Source of the DNA: Candidatus Hodarchaeota archaeon
GTDB taxonomy: Archaea; Asgardarchaeota; Heimdallarchaeia; Hodarchaeales; Hodarchaeaceae
Assembly: GCA_030589605.1 (NCBI GenBank)
Contig: JAUUVJ010000012.1
Span: 1-18,612, forward strand
Length of the DNA stretch: 18,612 nucleotides
Direction: 5' to 3'
Part shown: positions 9,123 to 18,612 of the stretch, piece by piece
Layout of the letters: every line of letters begins with the position of its first letter
Numbering within the stretch: position 1 is the first letter of the stretch
Notes under the pieces: generated by a model
What the model saw: only the letters and a program-made list of their open reading frames with translations
Told to the model about the DNA's origin: nothing
Database searches by the model: none
Program-made: the position numbers and the translations under genes

Positions 9123-9570
9123 AAACTTCCTAACTCTACTGTTAAAACTGAAATTTATTGTGCCATGGCTTATAGTTTTCAGGTATTTTAAACAAATTAT
9201 TCTGTTCAAATATATTTTTTTAAATATACAATACTTCTGGATTTGATGAACAAGAGATTTTACTAGCAAGGCTATCTAATTCTTCGTATAAAACTAGTTT
9301 CAGTTTTCTTTTTAGGTTTCAAATACCCCACATTTCCGAGGCAAGAACTTCTACCTTATTTGATCAGGAGAAAAATAACAGTAGGGAATATTTTACTGAC
9401 GATATACCATCTATCTTTAACCTTTGTGCTTATGATTACAGCCAAAGTAAAGTGGAAAAGAATTCGCTTATGAAATGACATATTAATCTGGTCAAGTTTC
9501 CTCAGGATTACCTAGAGAATACTCAAGCCTTAAATATTATTATGAAAAAGTAGATTCTGAGGATAAAAAG

Positions 9571-10872
9571 TTGGGAATTGAAAATCTATCTTCAACAGGA
9601 TTTCAGCCTGAATTAGTCAATTTAACTGAAATGAAAGAAGTTGTAGCTACATCTATCTTTATTGGAGACGGAATGTCTGGTAAAACTCAGATTCTAATTA
9701 CCCTTGGAAAATTATTATTGGAATATTTACAGAAAATCTATCAGATATCAAAAACGAATAATCCAAGCCTAGAGGCAGAATCACAGGAATTTTCAAAATC
9801 TCTTCGAACTTGGGCTGAAGGATATGGTTTTTTCTTAAGATATGGAAAGATAAAATGGAATATTATGGATGTTAGTCTTGATGCAGAAACTGTAGGATTA
9901 GAGGATTTTGAATTCATCTTTCCATATGTCTGGAAAGGACAAACGTACAAAATAAAACTTCAAGGAAATGATGTGGGAGGTCAAAATATATTCGATCATT
10001 TCAGAACTGTTCTAGGTAAGATTGTAAGCCCAGAAGATTTTTTAATTGTTGTTTTTGACAAATCTAGACAGTTATCATGTTTTAATAGTATTAACCAGAT
10101 TAAATCTATTATTGAGAATCGATCCGATTTTCCTCGAATAATCTATTGCGTGAACAAAATTGATTTAGAGGAACATATTCAAGCCACAACTTGGCGTGAG
10201 GGTGTATCTAAATCAATATTACAGGAGATTGAAAGCATAAGTTATTCTCATCAAGGAGAATACTCTATACCATCTTTAGTAGGAAAAGAAGAAAAAAGCA
10301 TTAGGTATAAAATTGAGAATAATAGATTGACTTTTCCTGACTTAGAAGCAATAATCTATAACTCGATTAGAAGTTCGGATAGCAAATATAAAACGCAACT
10401 GATGAGTGAAGTTAATACTAAAGCTCTTTCTCGGGAAATTGCTGCTCAAATATCCTATAGCAAAAAAGCAGATAACATTGGAAATCAAAATGACCATTTA
10501 GGGGAATTATGGAGTGATTTTAAAGACTTACTCTTTCAATATCGTCCTCTTGCAATACAATATTCAATAAAATCCGATTTAGCCCGAAAAGAAGAAGATT
10601 CTGATATTTATGGCCGAATACGAGAAAAATGGCTTTATTTTGCAGTCAATTTACCAATCCCTGAAGAATTAGTAATGTTAGCCATTGAAAAAGCGGGCAG
10701 TGCGGGAGATATTCTTTCGGAAATGGAAGCTGTTTTCGATACAAACGCTCTTATGGGAAGTGGAATTCTTAAGATAATAGATCATATAACCCAAGAAGCT
10801 TTGATCAAAATTGGAGAATCAAGTATTCAAAAAACAAAAGAACCAATCAGAAGACAATTCAGAAGATTTTAA
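9571..10872 (+). CDS. Divergent Ras-superfamily (Arf/G-alpha-like) GTPase with pre-switch-I insertion and long C-terminal extension
   Basis: G1 GDGMSGKT (nt 9664-9687), candidate G2 Thr in AETVGLED, G3 DVGGQ (9970-9984), G4 NKID (10153-10164). TTG start with GAGGA 8-9 nt upstream. The ATG at 9631 (MKEVVATSIFIGDGMSGKT) would give a more canonical N-terminus. Confidence 0.85.
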   Translation: MGIENLSSTGFQPELVNLTEMKEVVATSIFIGDGMSGKTQILITLGKLLLEYLQKIYQISKTNNPSLEAESQEFSKSLRTWAEGYGFFLRYGKIKWNIMDVSLDAETVGLEDFEFIFPYVWKGQTYKIKLQGNDVGGQNIFDHFRTVLGKIVSPEDFLIVVFDKSRQLSCFNSINQIKSIIENRSDFPRIIYCVNKIDLEEHIQATTWREGVSKSILQEIESISYSHQGEYSIPSLVGKEEKSIRYKIENNRLTFPDLEAIIYNSIRSSDSKYKTQLMSEVNTKALSREIAAQISYSKKADNIGNQNDHLGELWSDFKDLLFQYRPLAIQYSIKSDLARKEEDSDIYGRIREKWLYFAVNLPIPEELVMLAIEKAGSAGDILSEMEAVFDTNALMGSGILKIIDHITQEALIKIGESSIQKTKEPIRRQFRRF

Positions 10873-11033
10873 ATTTCTGCTACATGTTCTTAATCTATCC
10901 AAACTTCTCGTTCTCTGTTACAGTAATTGAATGAGGAAACCTTCATGCTATATGAGGAATAATACATTTCACAAAATTCCCTCAATTTATGTATTTTCCT
11001 ATTAAAAAGACTTCTTCTGATTGTTTATTACCC

Positions 11034-12596
11034 TTAATCCTGTAGTTTCGGCAAATTAATTGTTAATGTTGTACCTGTATCTCTACCCTCACTGTAAGCG
11101 TATATACTACCATTGTGGAGACTGATTATTTCACTAGAGATATATAGTCCATTCCCTGTCCCTGTAATATTGTATTCTGTTGGATAGGATACAAATTTAT
11201 CAAAGATTTTCTCCAAATTATCAGGTTCTATCCCAGCACCATTATCAGTAACAATTATCTGAACTTCAATATCAGAAACACTCAATTCTATAGAAATATT
11301 CCTGGTTTTACTTTGAGAGTTATTGATTGCATTTTCAAGAACATTGCCTAGAACATTTTTCAGTCTTTTAGGATCACCATTTATGATTATTTTTTCTTTA
11401 ACATTAAGGTTGATCCATCGTATTTGTCCTTGATATAATCTGATATATGGTTCAATGAAGGAGGTTAAAAACTCAATTATTTCCATTTTCTCTAAATTAA
11501 CTTCAAGTTTTCCTCTTTCTATTTTGTAAATGTCACTTACATCACTACTAAGATCTTCTAAACGATGTAAATTCTTCATTATAACATCTAAGAAATAAAT
11601 TTTTCTTTCATCTTCTTCTTGCTTCATTAAGAATTCTGTATACCCTTTTATAATAGTAATAGGAGTACGTAATTCGTGTGCGGTTTTGTCCATAAATTCT
11701 CGCCTTTTCTCAGCAAGTGATTCTCGTTCTTCTTGAGTCTTTTTTCTTTCTGTTACATCGCGAGCAACTAAGAAAAATCCTAAAGGGTGGCTTAACTCAT
11801 CTTTAATAACTGATGTACTTATTTCAGCACTGAATTTGCTACCATCCTTCCGAATCATTGTGTATTCAGTCTCATTAATTGCTCCTAGCTCAATGGTCTT
11901 TTTCATATTCTTAAGAGCATACTGGTGGTCATTGGGAATAATTAAATCATAAACACTCTTTCCAATTAATTCATTCTCTGTTTCATAGCTATACAACATT
12001 ACTGTTTGCTGGTTAAGGACAACAATGTTCGCATTAAGGTCTAATAAAAGTATAGCATCTGGTGACAGTTCCACAAGCATACGATATCGTTCTTCACTTC
12101 TGTGTAAAGCCTCTTCAGCTTTTTTACGCTCTGTAATGTCAGTAAAAATATAAACTATACTATTAGATCTTTCAGGCGTAGAAATAAGAGAAACAGTTGT
12201 TAAAAAAACAGGTACCCGATTACCATCTTTTGTTAAAAGATTACACTGAAATGAACTACTGATCCCCTCATGATGTTTTACAGAGTCCCTCTCGAATTTA
12301 TTAAGTTCCTCTGAGGGTATAATAATATCCTTTTGTTTTCCTAGCAACTCCAATTCAGTATATTTTAGGATCTCAGCAGCTCTAGGATTTACAAAAGTAA
12401 AATTTCCTTCTATACCTTCTAAGAGAATTCCTTCATTTAAACTCTTTACCAAAAATTCGTATCTTTCTTTATATTCGTTTAGATCATCATCTTTTTTTTT
12501 AATAAGAGAAATAATTTGTTGTTGAAAACTAGGAGGTAATGAACTGAGAATATCGCCTTTAATGAAATCTTCTATATCATTATTCTCCATATTCAT
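11034..12596 (-). CDS. Cytoplasmic sensor histidine kinase with two PAS domains
   Basis: Two PAS modules ending in FTDITERKKAEEAL and ARDVTERKKTQEE. H-box KTAHELRTPITIIKGYTEFL. HATPase_c motifs VLENAINNS, DNGAGI, GTGNGL. No TM segments. Confidence 0.95.
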   Translation of the reverse strand: MNMENNDIEDFIKGDILSSLPPSFQQQIISLIKKKDDDLNEYKERYEFLVKSLNEGILLEGIEGNFTFVNPRAAEILKYTELELLGKQKDIIIPSEELNKFERDSVKHHEGISSSFQCNLLTKDGNRVPVFLTTVSLISTPERSNSIVYIFTDITERKKAEEALHRSEERYRMLVELSPDAILLLDLNANIVVLNQQTVMLYSYETENELIGKSVYDLIIPNDHQYALKNMKKTIELGAINETEYTMIRKDGSKFSAEISTSVIKDELSHPLGFFLVARDVTERKKTQEERESLAEKRREFMDKTAHELRTPITIIKGYTEFLMKQEEDERKIYFLDVIMKNLHRLEDLSSDVSDIYKIERGKLEVNLEKMEIIEFLTSFIEPYIRLYQGQIRWINLNVKEKIIINGDPKRLKNVLGNVLENAINNSQSKTRNISIELSVSDIEVQIIVTDNGAGIEPDNLEKIFDKFVSYPTEYNITGTGNGLYISSEIISLHNGSIYAYSEGRDTGTTLTINLPKLQD

Positions 12597-12768
12597 GATT
12601 ATTCACCTATTTGGATATCAAAGTAAGTTATGAACTAGAATAAATAATCTTCTAAATAATTCGCAAGAATATTTATGAAAAAACTGAATTAGTTACGAAT
12701 ACCACTTCGAGTTTAATTTTAAAACGATTGTTCACAACAATTTTTAAGCAAGGATTATCTACATTTTT

Positions 12769-12972
12769 TTGGATAGAGGAGTATTTGTCATAGATCACAA
12801 ATCTCCAATATTAATTACAGATCTTTCTTTGGAACAAGCAATTAAAGAATTAGAAGAAAAATTATCGAAAAACCCCCTCCTTATCGATTTAACTGAAAAG
12901 AATTACCAAGAATTATGGGAGAGTTTTGCACAATCTCAAATAATACAGGAAGAAAAAAGTCAGAACAGATAG
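12769..12972 (+). CDS. Hypothetical small protein (67 aa, TTG start)
   Basis: Supported only by an open frame and plausible acidic/helical composition. No motif recognised. The frame continues beyond its TAG (see findings). Confidence 0.3.
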   Translation: MDRGVFVIDHKSPILITDLSLEQAIKELEEKLSKNPLLIDLTEKNYQELWESFAQSQIIQEEKSQNR

Positions 12973-12998
12973 AGAACCTATCGAAAAAAAGGAGAAAT

Positions 12999-13021
12999 GT
13001 TGTCTCAACGGATGAGACAAC
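12999..13021 (+). other. Perfect 9-bp stem / 5-nt loop hairpin
   Basis: gttgtctca-acgga-tgagacaac starts 27 nt after the TAG at 12970-12972. It is not followed by a strong T run, so its role as a terminator is uncertain. Confidence 0.3.
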
Positions 13022-13361
13022 TGCTAGAACATTAAATGAATCTTTTAAAAGTAAAAAGTTTCTTGGGATCAGGGAAAATGGACGATGATTCGGATAGATT
13101 AACGATTTCAGTGTTACACACCTTCAAGCAATATTGTCGTTTTAAAAAGCGCTAAAAAAATAAGTAGATATGAGTTGAAGACGCCTACGCAATTTTTTGT
13201 TACTTTCTTAGCTAACATTTGGAAAAAGCTTTTTTAATTAGTAATATCATAAATAATAGAAAAAGAATATTATCTCGATATTTCTTTGTTTGTTCGTCGT
13301 TGTCCATATTTGGAATATTAGTAATCAAAAATAAAGTCAAGTTCAGAAAAATGAGGAATGA

Positions 13362-15176
13362 ATGGAAAAAATCTGTTACTTAAGGGTTATAATGAGGATT
13401 ACGATTGTGGAGTCAAGATTAGAGAACAAGTTTCAGGAGCAGAAAGAATTTTTTCAGAAGACATTGGAATCTTTCGGTGTACCATTTTATATTATTAATA
13501 TCGATAACTATAATGTTAAACACGCAAGTATATCTTTCGATTTGGATCTCTCAAAGGATGAAGTAAAATGTTACTCTCTTCTTCATAGGAACCGAACACC
13601 CTGCAGAGGTGAAAATGAATCATGTCCAATTTCAGAGATTAGAAGAACCAAAAAAAGGGTGATAGTTAAACACATTCATTACGATAAGACGGGCAATTCT
13701 AGAGTACATGAGATTCATGCTCATCCAATTTTTAATGACAATGGAAATATCACACACATTTTTGAGTATCTATATGATATATCATCCAGGAGAGTTTTGA
13801 CTAAACTAGCTCCTCATTCACTAGTGGAACTACCAGACAAAAATTCAGCCTCTGATGAATCATATGAATTGATATCGGGTACTAATTTCGAGATGGGAGC
13901 ACGAAATATCTTTGATAGTTGCAAGGATGTAATTGGCGCAACTAGTGGGTATGTTGCATTGTTATCTAAGGATGGAACTCTGAACGAAGTTGTTTTTCTT
14001 GACTCAGGAGGTTTAACATGTAATGTAGATCCCTCTTTACTAATGCCAATCCGTGGTTTACGTGCTAAAGCTTATAAATCTGGTAATACTGTATTTGAGA
14101 ATGATTTTCCTGATAGTAGTTATACAGATTTGTTACCAGATGGACATGTCAAACTTAAAAATGTTCTCTTTGCACCCTTGAATATTAATGGTAAAACAGT
14201 TGGTATAATTGGCCTTGCAAATAAACCAGGTAATATTACCGAATATGATGCTCAAATAGCCTCAATGTTTGGAGATATAATTGCGAAAGCTCTAGATAAC
14301 TCCTATAATATTGATATATTTAGTATGACTGAAGATAAGATACAATCGAATTTAGAAAAGGGATCATTTCCTACTAAAAGTGAAATGGAAGAGTTTCTTA
14401 AAAGAACAAATGATCTTAAGGAGCGAATAATAGAATTAAATAGTTATCATGAAATTTCAAAGATTTTTTCAGAGCAAAAGCGATTACGTCTCTTACAAGA
14501 GCAATTTATAGCGGTTTCAACGCATGAATTACGTACACCTATGACTGTAATAAAGGGGTACATTGACTTTTTACTCCGGTATCCTGAGCTTACAATTGAT
14601 AAAATCACTCAAATTTTCAATATTATTAACAAAAGTGTGGATCGTCTGATTAAACTAATAAACAATGTTTCAGTTCTTTCAAAAATCCAAACCGATATAT
14701 TTAAAATTTATCCACAACCAATTAAGATAATAGATCTCTTATCTACTATTCAAGAAGAGATTCAGGTAGTCTATTCTCATAGAATTATCAATTTGAATTA
14801 TATTCCACATTTGAAAACGATAAATATGATAAATATTGACAAGGACGGGATAATACAAGTACTTAATAATCTAGTAAGTAATGCTGTAAAGAATTCGCCA
14901 AAAGGGAGTATTATAAATATTTCAGTGATTTTAAATCCTGAAAAGTTGGTTATATCAGTTCAAGATCAAGGCCCAGGAATCCCTACCCATATTCTCTTTA
15001 GACTTTTTCAACCATTTTCTCATTTTGACACTGAATATTCTTCAGGAGGCACAGGACTAGGTCTTTTCATAGTAAAAACTATCGTTCAAGAACATGAGGG
15101 GATAATTGAGGTTCATTCAATTGAAGATATTGGTTCGACATTTGTGATAACTTTACCAATAAAAATCGTAGATTAA
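13362..15176 (+). CDS. Sensor histidine kinase with Cys-rich PAS-like module and GAF-like domain
   Basis: N-terminal module KCYSLLHRNRTPCRGENESCPISE...HIHYDKTGNSRVHEIHAHPIFNDNGNITHIFEYLYDIS. Central GAF-like region GATSGYVALLSKDG...VLFAPLNINGKTVGIIGLANKPG. H-box VSTHELRTPMTVIKGYIDFL. HATPase_c motifs NLVSNAVKNS, DQGPGI, GGTGLGL. Confidence 0.9.
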   Translation: MEKICYLRVIMRITIVESRLENKFQEQKEFFQKTLESFGVPFYIINIDNYNVKHASISFDLDLSKDEVKCYSLLHRNRTPCRGENESCPISEIRRTKKRVIVKHIHYDKTGNSRVHEIHAHPIFNDNGNITHIFEYLYDISSRRVLTKLAPHSLVELPDKNSASDESYELISGTNFEMGARNIFDSCKDVIGATSGYVALLSKDGTLNEVVFLDSGGLTCNVDPSLLMPIRGLRAKAYKSGNTVFENDFPDSSYTDLLPDGHVKLKNVLFAPLNINGKTVGIIGLANKPGNITEYDAQIASMFGDIIAKALDNSYNIDIFSMTEDKIQSNLEKGSFPTKSEMEEFLKRTNDLKERIIELNSYHEISKIFSEQKRLRLLQEQFIAVSTHELRTPMTVIKGYIDFLLRYPELTIDKITQIFNIINKSVDRLIKLINNVSVLSKIQTDIFKIYPQPIKIIDLLSTIQEEIQVVYSHRIINLNYIPHLKTINMINIDKDGIIQVLNNLVSNAVKNSPKGSIINISVILNPEKLVISVQDQGPGIPTHILFRLFQPFSHFDTEYSSGGTGLGLFIVKTIVQEHEGIIEVHSIEDIGSTFVITLPIKIVD

Positions 15177-15228
15177 ATATACAATTTTAGAGAAATAATT
15201 CTGTTACATTAAAATGATCAATTTATTA

Positions 15229-15237
15229 TTTTTTTTT
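15229..15237 (+). terminator. Oligo-T (T9) tract downstream of the kinase gene
   Basis: Nine consecutive T about 55 nt after the TAA at 15174-15176. Archaeal RNA polymerase terminates at oligo-T. Confidence 0.4.
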
Positions 15238-15343
15238 AGATCTGGAAAACAAAAATAAAGGCAAAGTTTTTTTATACCAGATTTAGAAGCAGATTTCGAT
15301 AATTAAGCTTAAAAAATCTTATCAGTATTCTGACTGTAATGAA

Positions 15344-15640
15344 ATGGTGAAAAATTTGGTAAAACTAGATCAAGTAATTGGACAGGAGATTACTCTTACT
15401 GGATTTGCTAAAGTAGCCAAAGGAGGAACAGTTCTTATCACAGAGGATAACAATGTAGTTTATGTAAAAGGATCAGGATATTGGCCACTAGACCTGATAA
15501 ATAAACAAGTGAAAGTTCGGGGAGTGTTGAAAAAAGAGCAGTTTATCCCTGAAGCCACTATTGATGAGTATGGCGGTATTAGCAGCGGCGCTACAGGGAA
15601 ACAATATGTGCTGGAAATGATAGAGTATTCAAAGGTCTAA
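15344..15640 (+). CDS. Hypothetical protein (98 aa), beta-rich, unknown family
   Basis: ATG start and clean ORF in an otherwise stop-dense AT-rich region. The pattern G.EITLTG.AK.AKGG.VL......VYV.G...WP.DL..K.VKV.G.L...Q.IPE...D..G.IS.GA.G.QYVLE looks like a conserved small domain, but I cannot name it. Confidence 0.5.
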   Translation: MVKNLVKLDQVIGQEITLTGFAKVAKGGTVLITEDNNVVYVKGSGYWPLDLINKQVKVRGVLKKEQFIPEATIDEYGGISSGATGKQYVLEMIEYSKV

Positions 15641-15905
15641 GAAAAATATCATTTATTTTATCGGGGAAGAAAAGCATATTTCTTCGGAAGGAATAAAGGA
15701 GAAGAGAGAATATCAGATTTCCCTAGGGTCATTAATTCCTCTTTTCACCTTTCTAAATATCAGAATTACTAGAATTGGAAACACAATCACGATTCCAGTT
15801 ATACTGGGAGTTGTGGAAGATTTTTGGAGAAAATAATGCGAATTAATCTTCGAATTTTAATTAAGTATCTTTTTCATCCATCATTTGACAGATCTTTAGC
15901 GGTGA

Positions 15906-17096
15906 ATGATGAAGCCTAAAGAAAAAGAAATCATTGATACTAAAATAACAGATCAATGGGGTGTAAATTGGACACCCATGGAAATTGCAAGGGACTTTCT
16001 TCAAAATTTCTACGATGACAACAAAATAGATGATATTAAAATAGAAATTAAAAGAACATCTGTTGTTGTATCTGCTCCTAAGGTCTTTGATTATAAAGAA
16101 TTACTATATTTGGGTTCAGATAAAGAAAAAGGAAAAATTGGACAATATGGGGAAGGATTCAAAGCTGCAACGTTAAATGCTTTGCGAAACCATAATTGTA
16201 ATGTAATAGTTATAATCAGGGATATTAAATTAGATTTCTTCTTTACTTCTGAAAAAATAGGGAGGACGGAAAAAAAAGTGGTGAAATGTAAGAAAACAAC
16301 TTCCAGCAAAACTCCAGGAACTAAGCTTATACTTGAAAATTGTCCTGAAGAATTACTAAACGAATTCAGATTTGGTCTAAAGCATTTCTACTATGATAAC
16401 AATCCTCTATTTGGGGAAATTTTAGCGAGTACATATGAACAAGATATTTTTGTGTATAAATCTACAGATAATAATGGTTATGTTTTCTATAAAAATCTCT
16501 TACGGGCGAGAATAGGTGTCCCACTTGTGTTAGTTTGTAATCGAGCGTACTCCTCAGTGGATAAGGTAATTCAATTCGACCGAGACCGAAAAGCATTTGA
16601 TACTCATGTTCTAGAGAGCATTTATGAATTCATTTTTAGACCACTTAATAAAATTAGTCCTATAGTGGAATTTCTACAACCTTGGTGGTCTGATGGTCAC
16701 AAAATGCTTTCAACGATAGCTAAATCTGCCACTTACTTCCAAAAAATGCAATTTCCAGAGAAGTATTATGCTAAACACTCCACAAAAAAAATTTTCAATC
16801 CACAGATGAAAAAAGAAATAGAACAAAAACAAAAAGAACTATATGAGAGCGATTACATAGAATGTCCACATTATATGTCCAAATTAGGAATGAAAAATAT
16901 AATTACGATTATAGAAGAACAGAGAATAAGAGCAAGAAAACAACAGCAAGAAGAACCAGAGATTAGATCACTTATTCATGTAATTATCGATAAACTTTCA
17001 GAGGAGCAAAAATCCAGACTTTTAAAGAATATTCCAGAGGAGCAGCTACTAAAAATCCTCCAAAAAGAGAATATTTCACTTAAAGACTTTCTCTAA
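15906..17096 (+). CDS. GHKL-superfamily (sacsin/Hsp90/MORC-like) ATPase-domain protein, function unknown
   Basis: N-box-like ARDFLQNFYDD (compare ELLQNADDA / ELISNSSDA) at nt 15993-16019. Glycine motif LGSDKEKGKIGQYGEGFKAATL (compare sacsin iG.S.K....iGrFGiGFnS and Hsp90 IGQFGVGFYS) at nt 16137-16160. The remainder (~300 aa) is unrecognised, with a charged helical C-terminus. Confidence 0.6.
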   Translation: MMKPKEKEIIDTKITDQWGVNWTPMEIARDFLQNFYDDNKIDDIKIEIKRTSVVVSAPKVFDYKELLYLGSDKEKGKIGQYGEGFKAATLNALRNHNCNVIVIIRDIKLDFFFTSEKIGRTEKKVVKCKKTTSSKTPGTKLILENCPEELLNEFRFGLKHFYYDNNPLFGEILASTYEQDIFVYKSTDNNGYVFYKNLLRARIGVPLVLVCNRAYSSVDKVIQFDRDRKAFDTHVLESIYEFIFRPLNKISPIVEFLQPWWSDGHKMLSTIAKSATYFQKMQFPEKYYAKHSTKKIFNPQMKKEIEQKQKELYESDYIECPHYMSKLGMKNIITIIEEQRIRARKQQQEEPEIRSLIHVIIDKLSEEQKSRLLKNIPEEQLLKILQKENISLKDFL

Positions 17097-17195
17097 AAAA
17101 AAGCTTGATTCCTCTTCAAGTTTTTTTGCCCTAGCTTTTGCTTCTTCATTCCCTCTCAATAGAGAGATCATTAAATCACTATCCAAACAGATCAT
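17076..17195 (-). pseudogene. vapC: vapC (PIN-domain toxin) N-terminal remnant
   Basis: Minus-strand ATG at 17195 overlaps the end of vapB and reads MICLDSDLMISLLRGNEEAKARAKKLEEESSFFLEKVFK*. M.(L)D(S/T)..(L)I.LLRGNE.A...L is the typical VapC/PIN N-terminus with the first catalytic Asp. The frame closes after 39 codons, inside the terminator hairpin and the 3' end of the convergent gene. A full PIN domain is ~130 aa. Confidence 0.55.
17097..17127. terminator. A-tract / hairpin / T-tract structure (bidirectional terminator-like) between convergent genes
   Basis: aaaaaagcttga (17097-17108), a 7-nt loop, then tcaagttttttt (17116-17127), giving a 12-bp stem with one G-U pair. An A8 run lies on one side and a T7 run on the other. 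It begins right at the TAA of the GHKL gene. Confidence 0.5.
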
Positions 17196-17406
17196 TGAAT
17201 TGTCCCTCTAAATCATTTAAGGCCGTCTTCATCATTTCTAGTTCATCTGACGAGAGTTTCCATGTTCCAGCGAAACTTAGTAAAGATTTTCGTTTCATAG
17301 GACGTGTTAATCGTTTAACCACATCAGAAAACGACTCATTACCATTTTTTTCTTTTTTCAACCTTCGATATGCTTCATCATCTAAACTAATGTTTTTACT
17401 ACCCAA
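17179..17406 (-). CDS. vapB: VapB-type antitoxin (archaeal PF02697 / former DUF217 family)
   Basis: MGSKNISLDDEAYRRLKKEKNGNESFSDVVKRLT...KSLLSFAGTWK matches the family pattern tIslsDevYerLkklK..gESFSDvI.rL....k.l..faG.w. TTG start. Its 3' end overlaps the vapC remnant start. Confidence 0.75.
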   Translation of the reverse strand: MGSKNISLDDEAYRRLKKEKNGNESFSDVVKRLTRPMKRKSLLSFAGTWKLSSDELEMMKTALNDLEGQFNDLFG

Positions 17407-17648
17407 TTTGATTCACATATGCATATAAACACACAGAATATATATGGATTATCTTCTTTGAGTTAACCTAATTATAGATGAAACGAGCACATCCTAAAAA
17501 CCTAACGGAAGCAGATGAACTGAAAGCAAGAATTTTAATAGTTCTATTTACAAGAAGAAAATTCTAAAGGATCAAGGAAAGCTTTTTATTTTATTGAATA
17601 ATAAATGGTACTCACTCTATAATTTCATGAATGAGAACTATATAATAT

Positions 17649-17664
17649 TTGGTTGATCATCCAA
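17649..17664. promoter_or_regulatory. Imperfect 16-bp palindrome just downstream of a TATA-like element, upstream of the NYN gene
   Basis: ttggTtgatcaTccaa has 14 of 16 positions symmetric around tgatca. It abuts ctatataatattt (17638-17650) and lies about 45 nt upstream of the ATG at 17707, a position typical of archaeal repressor operators. Confidence 0.25.
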
Positions 17665-17706
17665 CTGGATTGAGATACACAATTTGTTAATTCTATTCAT
17701 GGAATT

Positions 17707-18612
17707 ATGGATACCCTTTTGGGAGAGACTACAATGGTCAAGGATTCTCTACATTTTGAAAGGCAAAATTTTCCTGCAAAGGCTGCAGTTGTGGTTGATG
17801 GAGGATATTGGAGAAAAATTATTGAAGAAATTGGAATTAGTTCAGTTGATTTGGTGTCTTTAACAGATTTTATTTGTTATCCTGCTTTTAGGATACGGAC
17901 ATATTTTTTTGATGGAAAAACCCAAGAATCGCAGTCTTTTCATGATGGACTCCAATTATTAGATCGATTTGAAGTCTATTTAGGAGAAGTAGTTCCGAGA
18001 ACCTTTTTTTGCCCTTCTTGTCAAGAAACAGTTCAAGTTCTAGCTCAAAAAAGAGTTGATGTGGCCCTTGCGGTCGAATTAGTCCATTTAGCTACCACAC
18101 AACAGATTGATCTCATTGTTCTTATCGCAGGGGATCGGGATTTTATTCCTGCTATAGAAACAGCAAAACATGCTGGTGCAATTTTACGCTTAATTCATGG
18201 ACATCCGAAAACAGTCTCAGATACTTTATTTAAGCTTGTTGATGAAAAAATGGAACTATCCGTGGATTTTTTCAAACAGAATAAGATCAATTATCAAAGA
18301 AAGGAAGCAATCAGTAAGGAGCTAAGGGAAAAGCAAGAAGAAGAGAAAATAAAGGAAGAAACGGAAATTGAAGCAATCACAACCATGATAGAATCAATAG
18401 TGGTTGATTTAATCTCAAAAACCTCAAAAAAATATGTTCCACTAAGTAGAATAGGAATAGAACTCAATAGAATTGAACCTAATTGGAAAGAGAAAACAAA
18501 AAAGAAGCATCTGAAAGATCTCATTGGAATGGTTGAAGAGAAATTTAAAATCAAGGTCCGGACGAAACACTATTATGATTCAACCACAAAGAAAGTCCCA
18601 ATTGTAAAGAAA
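17707..18612 (+). CDS. NYN-domain (LabA/limkain-b1 type) RNase-like protein with C-terminal OST-HTH/LOTUS-like domain (3' end beyond window)
   Basis: Not in the ORF track because it has no stop. Hand translation from ATG 17707 gives 302 sense codons to the window edge. AAVVVDGGYW...CPSCQETVQVLAQKRVDVALAVELVHLATTQQIDLIVLIAGDRDFIPAIETAKHAGAILRLI is the NYN signature (D at strand 1, QKgVDv, GDsDF.P). After a charged linker, ITTMIESIVVDLISKTSKKYVPLSRIGIELNRIEPNWKEKTKKKHLKDLIGMVEEKFKI resembles OST-HTH/LOTUS. Confidence 0.85.
   Translation, partial: MDTLLGETTMVKDSLHFERQNFPAKAAVVVDGGYWRKIIEEIGISSVDLVSLTDFICYPAFRIRTYFFDGKTQESQSFHDGLQLLDRFEVYLGEVVPRTFFCPSCQETVQVLAQKRVDVALAVELVHLATTQQIDLIVLIAGDRDFIPAIETAKHAGAILRLIHGHPKTVSDTLFKLVDEKMELSVDFFKQNKINYQRKEAISKELREKQEEEKIKEETEIEAITTMIESIVVDLISKTSKKYVPLSRIGIELNRIEPNWKEKTKKKHLKDLIGMVEEKFKIKVRTKHYYDSTTKKVPIVKK

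Follow-up and report, generated by a model that had tools for sequence, protein, structure and literature searches.

Does the right-hand end of this contig encode a conflict system in which a GHKL ATPase works with a nuclease, or does it hold genes that arrived there separately? The question was raised by an earlier note on contig JAUUVJ010000012.1 of a Candidatus Hodarchaeota archaeon, made from the letters of the sequence. This contig (C438; 18,612 bp), analysed here in its entirety and hereafter called the window, is one of the 438 contigs of a 3.6-Mb metagenome-assembled genome (MAG) with a completeness of 74.6%. In its last 3.3 kb (15344–18612), four features had been described: a small unclassified open reading frame (ORF), a gene for a GHKL ATPase, a vapB antitoxin gene with a dead vapC, and a NYN-LOTUS nuclease-like gene. 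All four were found to be real, and every ORF of this patch was present at the coordinates given. The stretch also proved to be accessory and variable, as had been suspected, since each element is patchy among relatives, near-identical copies show differing contexts, and toxin–antitoxin (TA) remnants flank the modules; it is not a conserved syntenic core. The functional pairing of ATPase and nuclease did not stand. It is likely that recombination pieced the right-hand 3.3 kb together as a mosaic, within a variable region of this Hodarchaeales genome (Heimdall group of the Asgard archaea), from at least four independently inherited units that do not make up one system.

Junctions between the modules

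The GHKL gene was found to lie in a self-contained module of ~1.25 kb (15848..17099) that moves as a unit and comprises the ORF, ~58 bp of AT-rich sequence ahead of it, and 3 bp past its stop codon. The borders of the module were set by homology breaks against two contigs. The first, a Logan contig (L002), carried a GHKL copy 89.8% identical to that of the window, with homology confined to window positions 15846–17099 and an unrelated remaining context. The second, an ENA contig (L003) 97–98% identical to the window, was collinear up to 15836, then interrupted by a 1.2-kb insert, and resumed at 15842. Because homology started at ~15846–15849 in both contigs, the left end of the module could be placed at ~15848 by two independent comparisons; the right end (17099) is the point where homology to L002 stops. 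The insert in L003 (L003:5507-6725) contained two NosD/beta-helix gene fragments and was located exactly at the left junction of the module. The GHKL gene of the same contig diverged after residue ~308 (window equivalent 16829; L003:7712-7870), resulting in a 350-aa product. Together, the insert and the altered 3′ end of the gene indicated that the same hotspot had been rearranged again in a sister strain. The GHKL gene was not found in any of 60 relatives, including 21 congeners, and a search of 400 genomes of the phylum returned one full-length match, in the window's own genome, and two marginal partial matches.

The right end of this module falls within a vapBC pair. The vapB antitoxin gene (17179..17406, minus strand; 75 aa) is intact, with a match to PF02697 at E = 9.7e-17 (62 bits, cutoff 27.9), and its locus shows 85% nucleotide identity to the vapBC of a congener (G013). 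In this congener and in another (G018), an intact VapC of 132 aa starting with MICLDSDF[ML]ISLLRGN is encoded beside vapB. The window holds a stub of the PIN-toxin gene (17076..17195, minus strand), a 39-codon frame of which ~30 codons are homologous to these intact proteins. Past ~29–30 residues, the stub reads antisense into the 3′ end of the GHKL gene, and library scans of it returned no PIN-domain match. DNA homology to the intact vapBC of the congeners begins at ~17107. Since these homology borders coincide, the right junction of the GHKL module (17099) was identified with the point at which vapC was cut (~17107). As in the type II pairs of the congeners, vapB overlaps the start of the PIN-toxin frame; unlike in those intact modules, the toxin is cut to ~30 of its 132 codons. 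Judged by its sequence, the VapBC module is dead, with the antitoxin alone remaining, and the description of an intact vapB beside a dead vapC was correct. A related layout was observed in G018 (G018:C181:5493-8302; L009, L022), where vapC-vapB lies opposite a NYN gene (46% identical) in the same divergent arrangement, with vapC intact and an extra RHH-PIN pair in between.

A further module carries the NYN-LOTUS gene (17539..18612). It starts ~167 bp upstream of the ATG and runs 253 bp past the window, to the equivalent of position 18865. This extension was obtained from a JGI metagenome contig (L028) that is 99.8% identical to window positions 9282–18612, and so represents the same strain, and that reaches 7.9 kb farther. 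In three other sequences (L029, 92.7% identical; G012, 86.7%; L059, 87.8%), homology was limited to 17539–18865, each time in a different context. The NYN gene was present in 9 of the 21 congeners and 14 of the 60 relatives, and the GHKL gene was absent from every one of those genomes. The neighbours of the NYN gene are rich in TA genes in L029, in G018, and just past the window, while other close orthologues lie among metabolic genes.

No conserved linkage between the GHKL and NYN genes was found across genomes. The NYN profile had no match in 30 GHKL-family loci (390 kb, six-frame translation), the GHKL profile had none in 15 NYN loci, and no NYN gene occurred within 3–4 kb on either side of the GHKL copy in L002. 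Likewise, the neighbourhoods of the closest full-length GHKL homologues and those of close NYN orthologues had nothing in common. In the window, the two genes are 610 bp apart on the same strand, separated by the opposite-strand vapB and vapC stub and by two independent homology breakpoints. With an opposite-strand TA remnant and two recombination junctions between them, they do not form an operon. The position of a sacsin-like ATPase beside a LOTUS protein is a striking coincidence and, by the junction analysis, a strain-level accident. The suggestion that further partners of such a system might lie downstream was not borne out either, as the 7.9-kb extension in L028 contained none.

The encoded proteins and their surroundings

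The GHKL gene (15906..17096, plus strand) encodes a protein of 396 aa that was assigned, from its AlphaFold2 model, Foldseek matches, and motifs, to the GHKL ATPases of the sacsin/Hsp90-like type. A transducer-like domain and a C-terminal tail of three helices complete this short form, which lacks the HExxH domain of its relatives. The AlphaFold2 model, computed with 96 homologues, reached a mean predicted local distance difference test score (pLDDT) of 91.5 and a predicted template modelling score (pTM) of 0.81. The top Foldseek matches in the PDB were all GHKL proteins, namely the N+M domains of TRAP1 (E = 1.6e-5), HtpG, Topo VI-B, and MutL LN40. The model of a full-length homologue (pLDDT 90.5) additionally matched MORC2 and GyrB 43K. 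At the sequence level, the 396-aa protein matched no Pfam family even at E ≤ 10, no PADLOC model, and no PDB chain, and its match to the NCBIfam model of the sacsin ATP-binding domain (NF047352) was sub-threshold (E = 0.11, 13 bits, cutoff 50). As modelled, the protein is a GHKL ATPase at the fold level that curated sequence models do not recognise, and at that level the GHKL assignment of the earlier note holds. A search of the window's own genome with the C-terminal 51-aa tail, made for a homotypic partner, returned the self-match only.

Motif conservation was scored over 96 family members. Residues Q33, N34, F35, D37, K73, G79, Y81, G82, E83, G84, K86, D225, R226, D227, and R228 were invariant, which is consistent with a Bergerat ATP site, and binding and hydrolysis of ATP are predicted. 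The equivalent of GHKL motif I (N-box), D30-x3-N34-x2-D37 (RDFLQNFYD; 15993..16016, plus strand), is located on helix 24–38 of the model. Here N34 and D37 occur in every sequence and D30 in at least 90% of them, with Asp replacing the usual Glu at the general-base position. A glycine-rich ATP-lid motif, G79-Q-Y-G-E-G-F-K86 (16140..16163, plus strand), lies within the stretch aligned to the sacsin ATP-binding model; its G2-like part, G79-Q-Y-G-E-G84, is invariant. A canonical DxGxG box (G1) was not found, and S71-x-K73 precedes the lid motif instead. After the transducer-like sheet follows a D-R-D-R-K loop (residues 225–229; 16578..16592, plus strand), in which the first four residues (D225–R228) never vary and K229 is conserved in at least 90% of the sequences. 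The transducers of GyrB, MutL, and Hsp90 contribute a Lys/Arg, and on this analogy the loop is a candidate for providing the basic residue that senses the gamma-phosphate.

The clustered protein collection contained 111 homologues of the 396-aa protein, from Planctomycetota, Verrucomicrobiota (including Akkermansia), Latescibacterota, Treponema, Chryseobacterium, Anaerolineae, and a few Asgard MAGs, and a profile search recovered 1,696 cluster representatives at E ≤ 1e-3. In the usual architecture, a sacsin-like GHKL domain is followed by a transducer, an HExxH zincin, and a tail that varies (short helical, EAD11, TPR, or WD40), and the family is here referred to as the GHKL-zincin family. No model in Pfam, NCBIfam, or PADLOC is dedicated to it. 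Among 57 members, the sacsin ATP-binding model was matched by 32 (best E = 6e-4), the M6 metalloprotease domain model by two, and the TmtA model of Tiamat by one (E = 0.012). Nearly all members are 515–580 aa long and share a block of ~130 residues, absent from the window protein, that bears the nearly invariant HExxH motif LLHEWxHIxGxDGSRxFTDALT.

This block was lost through an in-frame deletion of ~130 codons that removed the zincin-like domain. The junction (16941..16946, plus strand) was recognised as a clean alignment gap against all 515–580-aa homologues. In the models, helices 332–351 and 460–482 of the full-length protein merge into a single helix (332–363) in the short form, and the three-helix tail is retained. 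In the maximum-likelihood tree, the clade of short forms (window, P0001, and P0002), with a support of 100 in the Shimodaira–Hasegawa-like approximate likelihood ratio test (SH-aLRT), is nested among HExxH-bearing clades, which indicates that the deletion is derived and rules out the short form as the ancestral architecture. An assembly artefact was also ruled out, as four independent assemblies carry the short form. The ratio of non-synonymous to synonymous substitution rates (dN/dS) between the window and L002 copies was 0.18 (51 non-synonymous and 60 synonymous differences), indicating that the short protein is maintained by purifying selection.

Elsewhere in the family, a clade with EAD11 tails (P0021, P0022, P0030, P0032, and P0033; EAD11, PF19964, was detected in P0021, P0030, and P0032) has kept the zincin-like domain and lost the HExxH residues by substitution. 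In longer members (P0241, P0245, P0249, and P0260), the tail is swapped for WD40 or TPR repeats, and tail swapping of this kind resembles the modular architecture of STAND-type immune sensors. Full-length GHKL-zincin genes of Akkermansia muciniphila and other Verrucomicrobiota (L034, L035:7028-9773, L037, L048, L051, and L053) lie directly downstream of a tyrosine integrase, accompanied in all of these six loci but L034 by an AbiEi/AbiEii pair. This context suggests carriage on an integrative element. The integrase, AbiEi, and AbiEii were the only recurrent neighbours and were limited to one verrucomicrobial subclade, and a conserved partner for the family as a whole was therefore rejected.

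The NYN gene (17707..18612, plus strand) breaks off at the contig end after 302 of its 381 codons, in agreement with the earlier observation that the window ends inside it, and its full length was taken from L028. It encodes a LabA/MARF1-like NYN nuclease with a Cys-x2-Cys insert, followed in the window by the first of two LOTUS/OST-HTH-like repeats; full-length proteins of this kind are 381 aa long and have two LOTUS-like repeats. The match to PF01936 (38.5 bits, cutoff 24.2) supported the NYN assignment. The LOTUS assignment stood at the family level, with PF12872 (OST-HTH) detected in 18 of 33 NYN homologues (best E = 1.1e-5), but for the window's own orthologue the match was weak and below cutoff (E = 0.033, 14.5 bits, cutoff 23.8). 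A PDB profile match to the OST-HTH structure 2kpm was also weak (E = 0.12). All 33 sequences have D118, D143, and D145, and at least 90% of them have D31. With this Asp set intact, and with LOTUS domains that would bind RNA, the protein is most likely an RNA-binding endoribonuclease that cleaves RNA and acts alone. A eukaryote-like (MARF1-type) affinity was rejected, as the profile matches were to the bacterial structures 2qip and 2kpm only, with no MARF1 chain at E ≤ 1. The architecture of NYN plus two LOTUS repeats (P0112-P0168) was observed in MAGs labelled Hodarchaeales, Heimdallarchaeota, Thorarchaeota, Odinarchaeota, and Promethearchaeota. In the PADLOC search that had been proposed as a check, the 396-aa protein gave no hit and the NYN gene matched HEC-09, an Hma-embedded candidate (E = 4e-15), over the NYN core residues 58–198 only. 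Hma genes near the NYN gene were absent from both the window and the L028 extension.

The patch begins with an independent element, a 98-aa ORF (15344..15640, plus strand) that encodes a conserved small protein of unknown function. It had no match in Pfam, NCBIfam, PADLOC, PHROGs, or the PDB. Within one other genus of its class, 7 of 11 genomes had homologues (E = 1e-12 to 1e-18), which indicated a real gene with a patchy distribution; none occurred in the 21 congeners. The ORF is also present on the near-identical contigs L003 and L028.

The GC content is ~32% across the whole window, and a compositional break at 15.3 kb is absent. The left 15 kb codes for an ABC transporter, a solute-binding protein, an acyltransferase, three soluble PAS/GAF histidine kinases, and a Ras-like GTPase. 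The GAF/PAS histidine kinase adjoining the patch (13362–15176) has no full-length orthologue in the 21 congeneric species genomes, in which the kinase core alone was matched at 38–48% identity, so that poor conservation reaches to the left of the reported start of the patch. Beyond the NYN gene, L028 codes for an MNT-HepT fragment, a methyltransferase, a 488-aa protein in which HTH signals are weak, a C25 peptidase, and, ahead of this peptidase, two genes that are small or weakly annotated. These 7.9 kb contain no further GHKL partner, helicase, or methylase pair, and no recognised defence system (CRISPR, restriction–modification, or similar) was found in them or in the window. In the fragment directly after the NYN module (L028:9584-9940; window equivalent 18865–19221), an MNT (Polbeta-type) antitoxin is represented by its last ~13 codons, which are joined in frame to a HepT/HEPN toxin that is missing its N-terminus and has kept the RNIVSH motif (Rx4H). 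It is a second TA pair broken at a module junction. In the MAG itself, contig C354 resumes the locus after a 2.8-kb gap that opens inside the NYN gene (G000:C354:2-5054 versus L028:12154-17206); an assembly break at a module known from several contexts suggests strain heterogeneity in the sample.

Explanations for the patch

The mosaic was probably assembled as follows. The 98-aa gene would form one unit. Another, acquired horizontally, would be the GHKL module, whose 1.25 kb comprise a single gene together with its upstream region. The right junction of the incoming module would have removed vapC codons ~31–132, leaving vapB, the third unit, orphaned by the insertion. The NYN-plus-2xLOTUS RNase module would be a separate fourth unit, which in sister strains and species lies in unrelated, often TA-rich neighbourhoods. 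A full-length GHKL-zincin protein would combine sensor, switch, and effector in a single chain, as in conflict systems, with ATP-driven dimerisation of the GHKL domain coupled through the transducer to the zincin and with the variable tail binding a ligand or partner. After in-frame excision of the zincin, the short form would be left with an ATP-driven clamp and the helical tail only. Lacking its own catalytic effector, it probably serves in ATP-dependent binding or regulation, and it is still kept by selection.

A two-gene conflict system, in which the GHKL ATPase would be the sensor and switch and the NYN-LOTUS nuclease the effector in trans, would echo MORC/paraMORC-nuclease operons and the LOTUS-Tiamat fusions of eukaryotes. 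The short distance and the shared strand of the two genes fit such a system, and a trans effector would be convenient for a short form that lost its own effector domain. Moreover, fusions of LOTUS domains with sacsin-clade GHL ATPases are reported from aquatic eukaryotes in the Tiamat preprint, as are effectors drawn from neighbouring genes, and the arrangement in L028 is identical, though that assembly represents the same strain. However, a short-form copy 89.8% identical to that of the window is found in L002 away from any NYN gene, nine congeners hold NYN without GHKL, cross-matches in the 45 loci numbered zero, and the TA remnant and both junctions intervene. We regard the pairing as very improbable, and the hypothesis of a GHKL-plus-nuclease system can be dropped; that the short form now borrows the neighbouring nuclease in trans is a remoter idea still. 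A genuine defence island, in which independent genes against viruses or mobile elements (a single-gene GHKL immune protein, a HEC-09-type NYN RNase, and TA genes) were gathered in a hotspot, would account for the HEC-09 match and for the TA-rich surroundings of the NYN gene in L029, in G018, and just past the window. It would also fit the EAD11, TPR, and WD40 tails of the GHKL family, the adjoining integrase and AbiE genes, and the extremely patchy distribution of the family with its signs of horizontal transfer. On the other hand, HEC-09 protected against none of the phages tested in the original screen (10.1101/2024.01.29.577857), other close NYN orthologues are surrounded by metabolic genes, the GHKL family is in no defence database, and the window with its extension holds no recognised defence system. 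An island of this kind is a tentative alternative that we consider unlikely.

Decay was also weighed, with the 396-aa gene as a functionless remnant that is turning into a pseudogene now that its catalytic zincin is gone. The near-invariant HExxH domain of the family is missing from it, the patch holds other broken genes (the vapC stub and, past the window, the MNT-HepT remnant), and in L003 the 3′ end of the gene is replaced after 16829. Yet the ORF is intact in three divergent lineages (89–93% identity) at a dN/dS that points to constraint, and every invariant ATPase motif is retained. In addition, the deletion is domain-precise with a remainder that folds confidently, and other clades have lost the HExxH residues and kept the protein. 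Decay is improbable on these grounds, and the reading of the patch as a mosaic that includes a working short form is preferred.

Several observations weigh against this preferred mosaic reading or blur its outline. Some GHKL homologues sit among ordinary genes, the family has neither a conserved neighbour nor an experimentally studied member, and its putative role in conflict is read from architecture and context. Relatives of the GHKL protein were not found on sequenced plasmids or phages (tblastn, even at E ≤ 1), nor on IMG/VR viral contigs (pattern scan). Searches at the module ends found no terminal repeats, tRNA genes, integrase, or recombinase that would point to a mechanism of movement. 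The congeneric genomes are too divergent for a 'core' flank or a precise island border to be defined. Finally, the adjacency of vapBC and a NYN gene in G018 may mean that this neighbourhood is older than the GHKL insertion, or that it is recurrent.

Relation to known systems

Hsp90/TRAP1/HtpG, Topo VI-B, MutL, and MORC proteins were the best structural matches of both models, over the Bergerat fold and the domain that follows it. With these classical GHKL proteins, the 396-aa protein shares the Asn and Asp of the N-box and the glycine-rich lid motif. It differs from them in TM-scores of just 0.2–0.3, in the absence of a Pfam HATPase_c or PDB-chain match by sequence, in the Asp that stands in place of Glu four positions before the Asn, and in a DxGxG box that is not clear; partner domains of chaperones, topoisomerases, or mismatch-repair proteins are absent as well. 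A viral family of unknown function, phrog_6077, is similar in length and also without a zincin, and was matched by residues 9–367 over profile positions 3–344 of 366 (E = 4.6e-11). Searches of the phage, plasmid, and IMG/VR collections with the GHKL queries brought up none of its members.

The NYN-LOTUS protein resembles the bacterial DUF88-OST-HTH family and the eukaryotic MARF1/limkain b1 proteins in having a NYN-type RNase domain with a conserved Asp set followed by putative LOTUS/OST-HTH repeats. An architecture of LK-nuclease/LabA-type NYN plus OST-HTH was described by Anantharaman et al. (2010; PMC2848206), who found archaeal OST-HTH domains to be very rare. The two bacterial structures weakly matched by the window's NYN family, 2qip and 2kpm, were used in that study. 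Unlike the proteins described earlier, those found here form a family that spans the Asgard archaea; its NYN domain carries a Cys-x2-Cys insert, and its LOTUS repeats number exactly two. The architecture is widespread in Asgard archaea, in contrast to the earlier view that LOTUS domains are nearly absent from archaea. The locus as a whole offers a base-resolution example of how variable regions are assembled in these archaea, with single-gene modules swapped together with their upstream regions and TA pairs broken.

The closest comparison for the GHKL-zincin family is Tiamat, whose protein TmtA comprises a sacsin-clade GHL ATPase, a transducer, TPR-like folds, an inactive Wss1-like metalloprotease fold, and a C-terminal PD-(D/E)xK nuclease; swappable effectors, as well as N-terminal LOTUS domains in aquatic eukaryotes, are reported in the same preprint (bioRxiv 10.64898/2026.09.30.754977). 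Like Tiamat and the sacsin clade, the GHKL-zincin proteins have an N-terminal Hsp90/sacsin-like ATPase followed by a transducer-like domain. As in Tiamat, a downstream metalloprotease-type module is carried by the relatives of the 396-aa protein, C-terminal modules are swapped, and the gene is stand-alone, rare, and patchy in prokaryotes. Library signals of the GHKL type were limited to the sacsin ATP-binding and TmtA models. Unlike Tiamat, the family is much smaller (396 or ~525 aa) and lacks both the DUF3684/TPR core and the PD-(D/E)xK NOV_C nuclease: neither DUF3684 nor NOV_C/DUF3883 was detected when the window protein and six full-length homologues were searched with Pfam, and proteins of 396–580 aa are too short to hold them. 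The PADLOC TmtA model did not match the window protein. The zincin of the parent family keeps its HExxH motif, unlike the inactive Wss1-like fold of Tiamat, whereas the window protein has no zincin. The GHKL-zincin family looks like a compact relative of Tiamat that lies outside it by TmtA profile, DUF3684, and nuclease.

This uncurated family, widespread but rare, bears on the origin of the inactive metalloprotease fold of Tiamat, and its proteins are small and tractable for study of how GHL ATPases are coupled to effectors. The Hodarchaeales short form provides a natural experiment, in which a lineage cleanly deleted the effector domain and yet stayed under purifying selection. It is conceivable, although we put it forward only tentatively, that the parent family represents an undescribed class of single-protein, ATP-gated protease immune sensors, of which the short form would be a protease-less working derivative, for example a sensor or a decoy. 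If so, the family would be a compact and, as predicted from its HExxH motif, catalytically intact counterpart of the inactive Wss1-like module of Tiamat.

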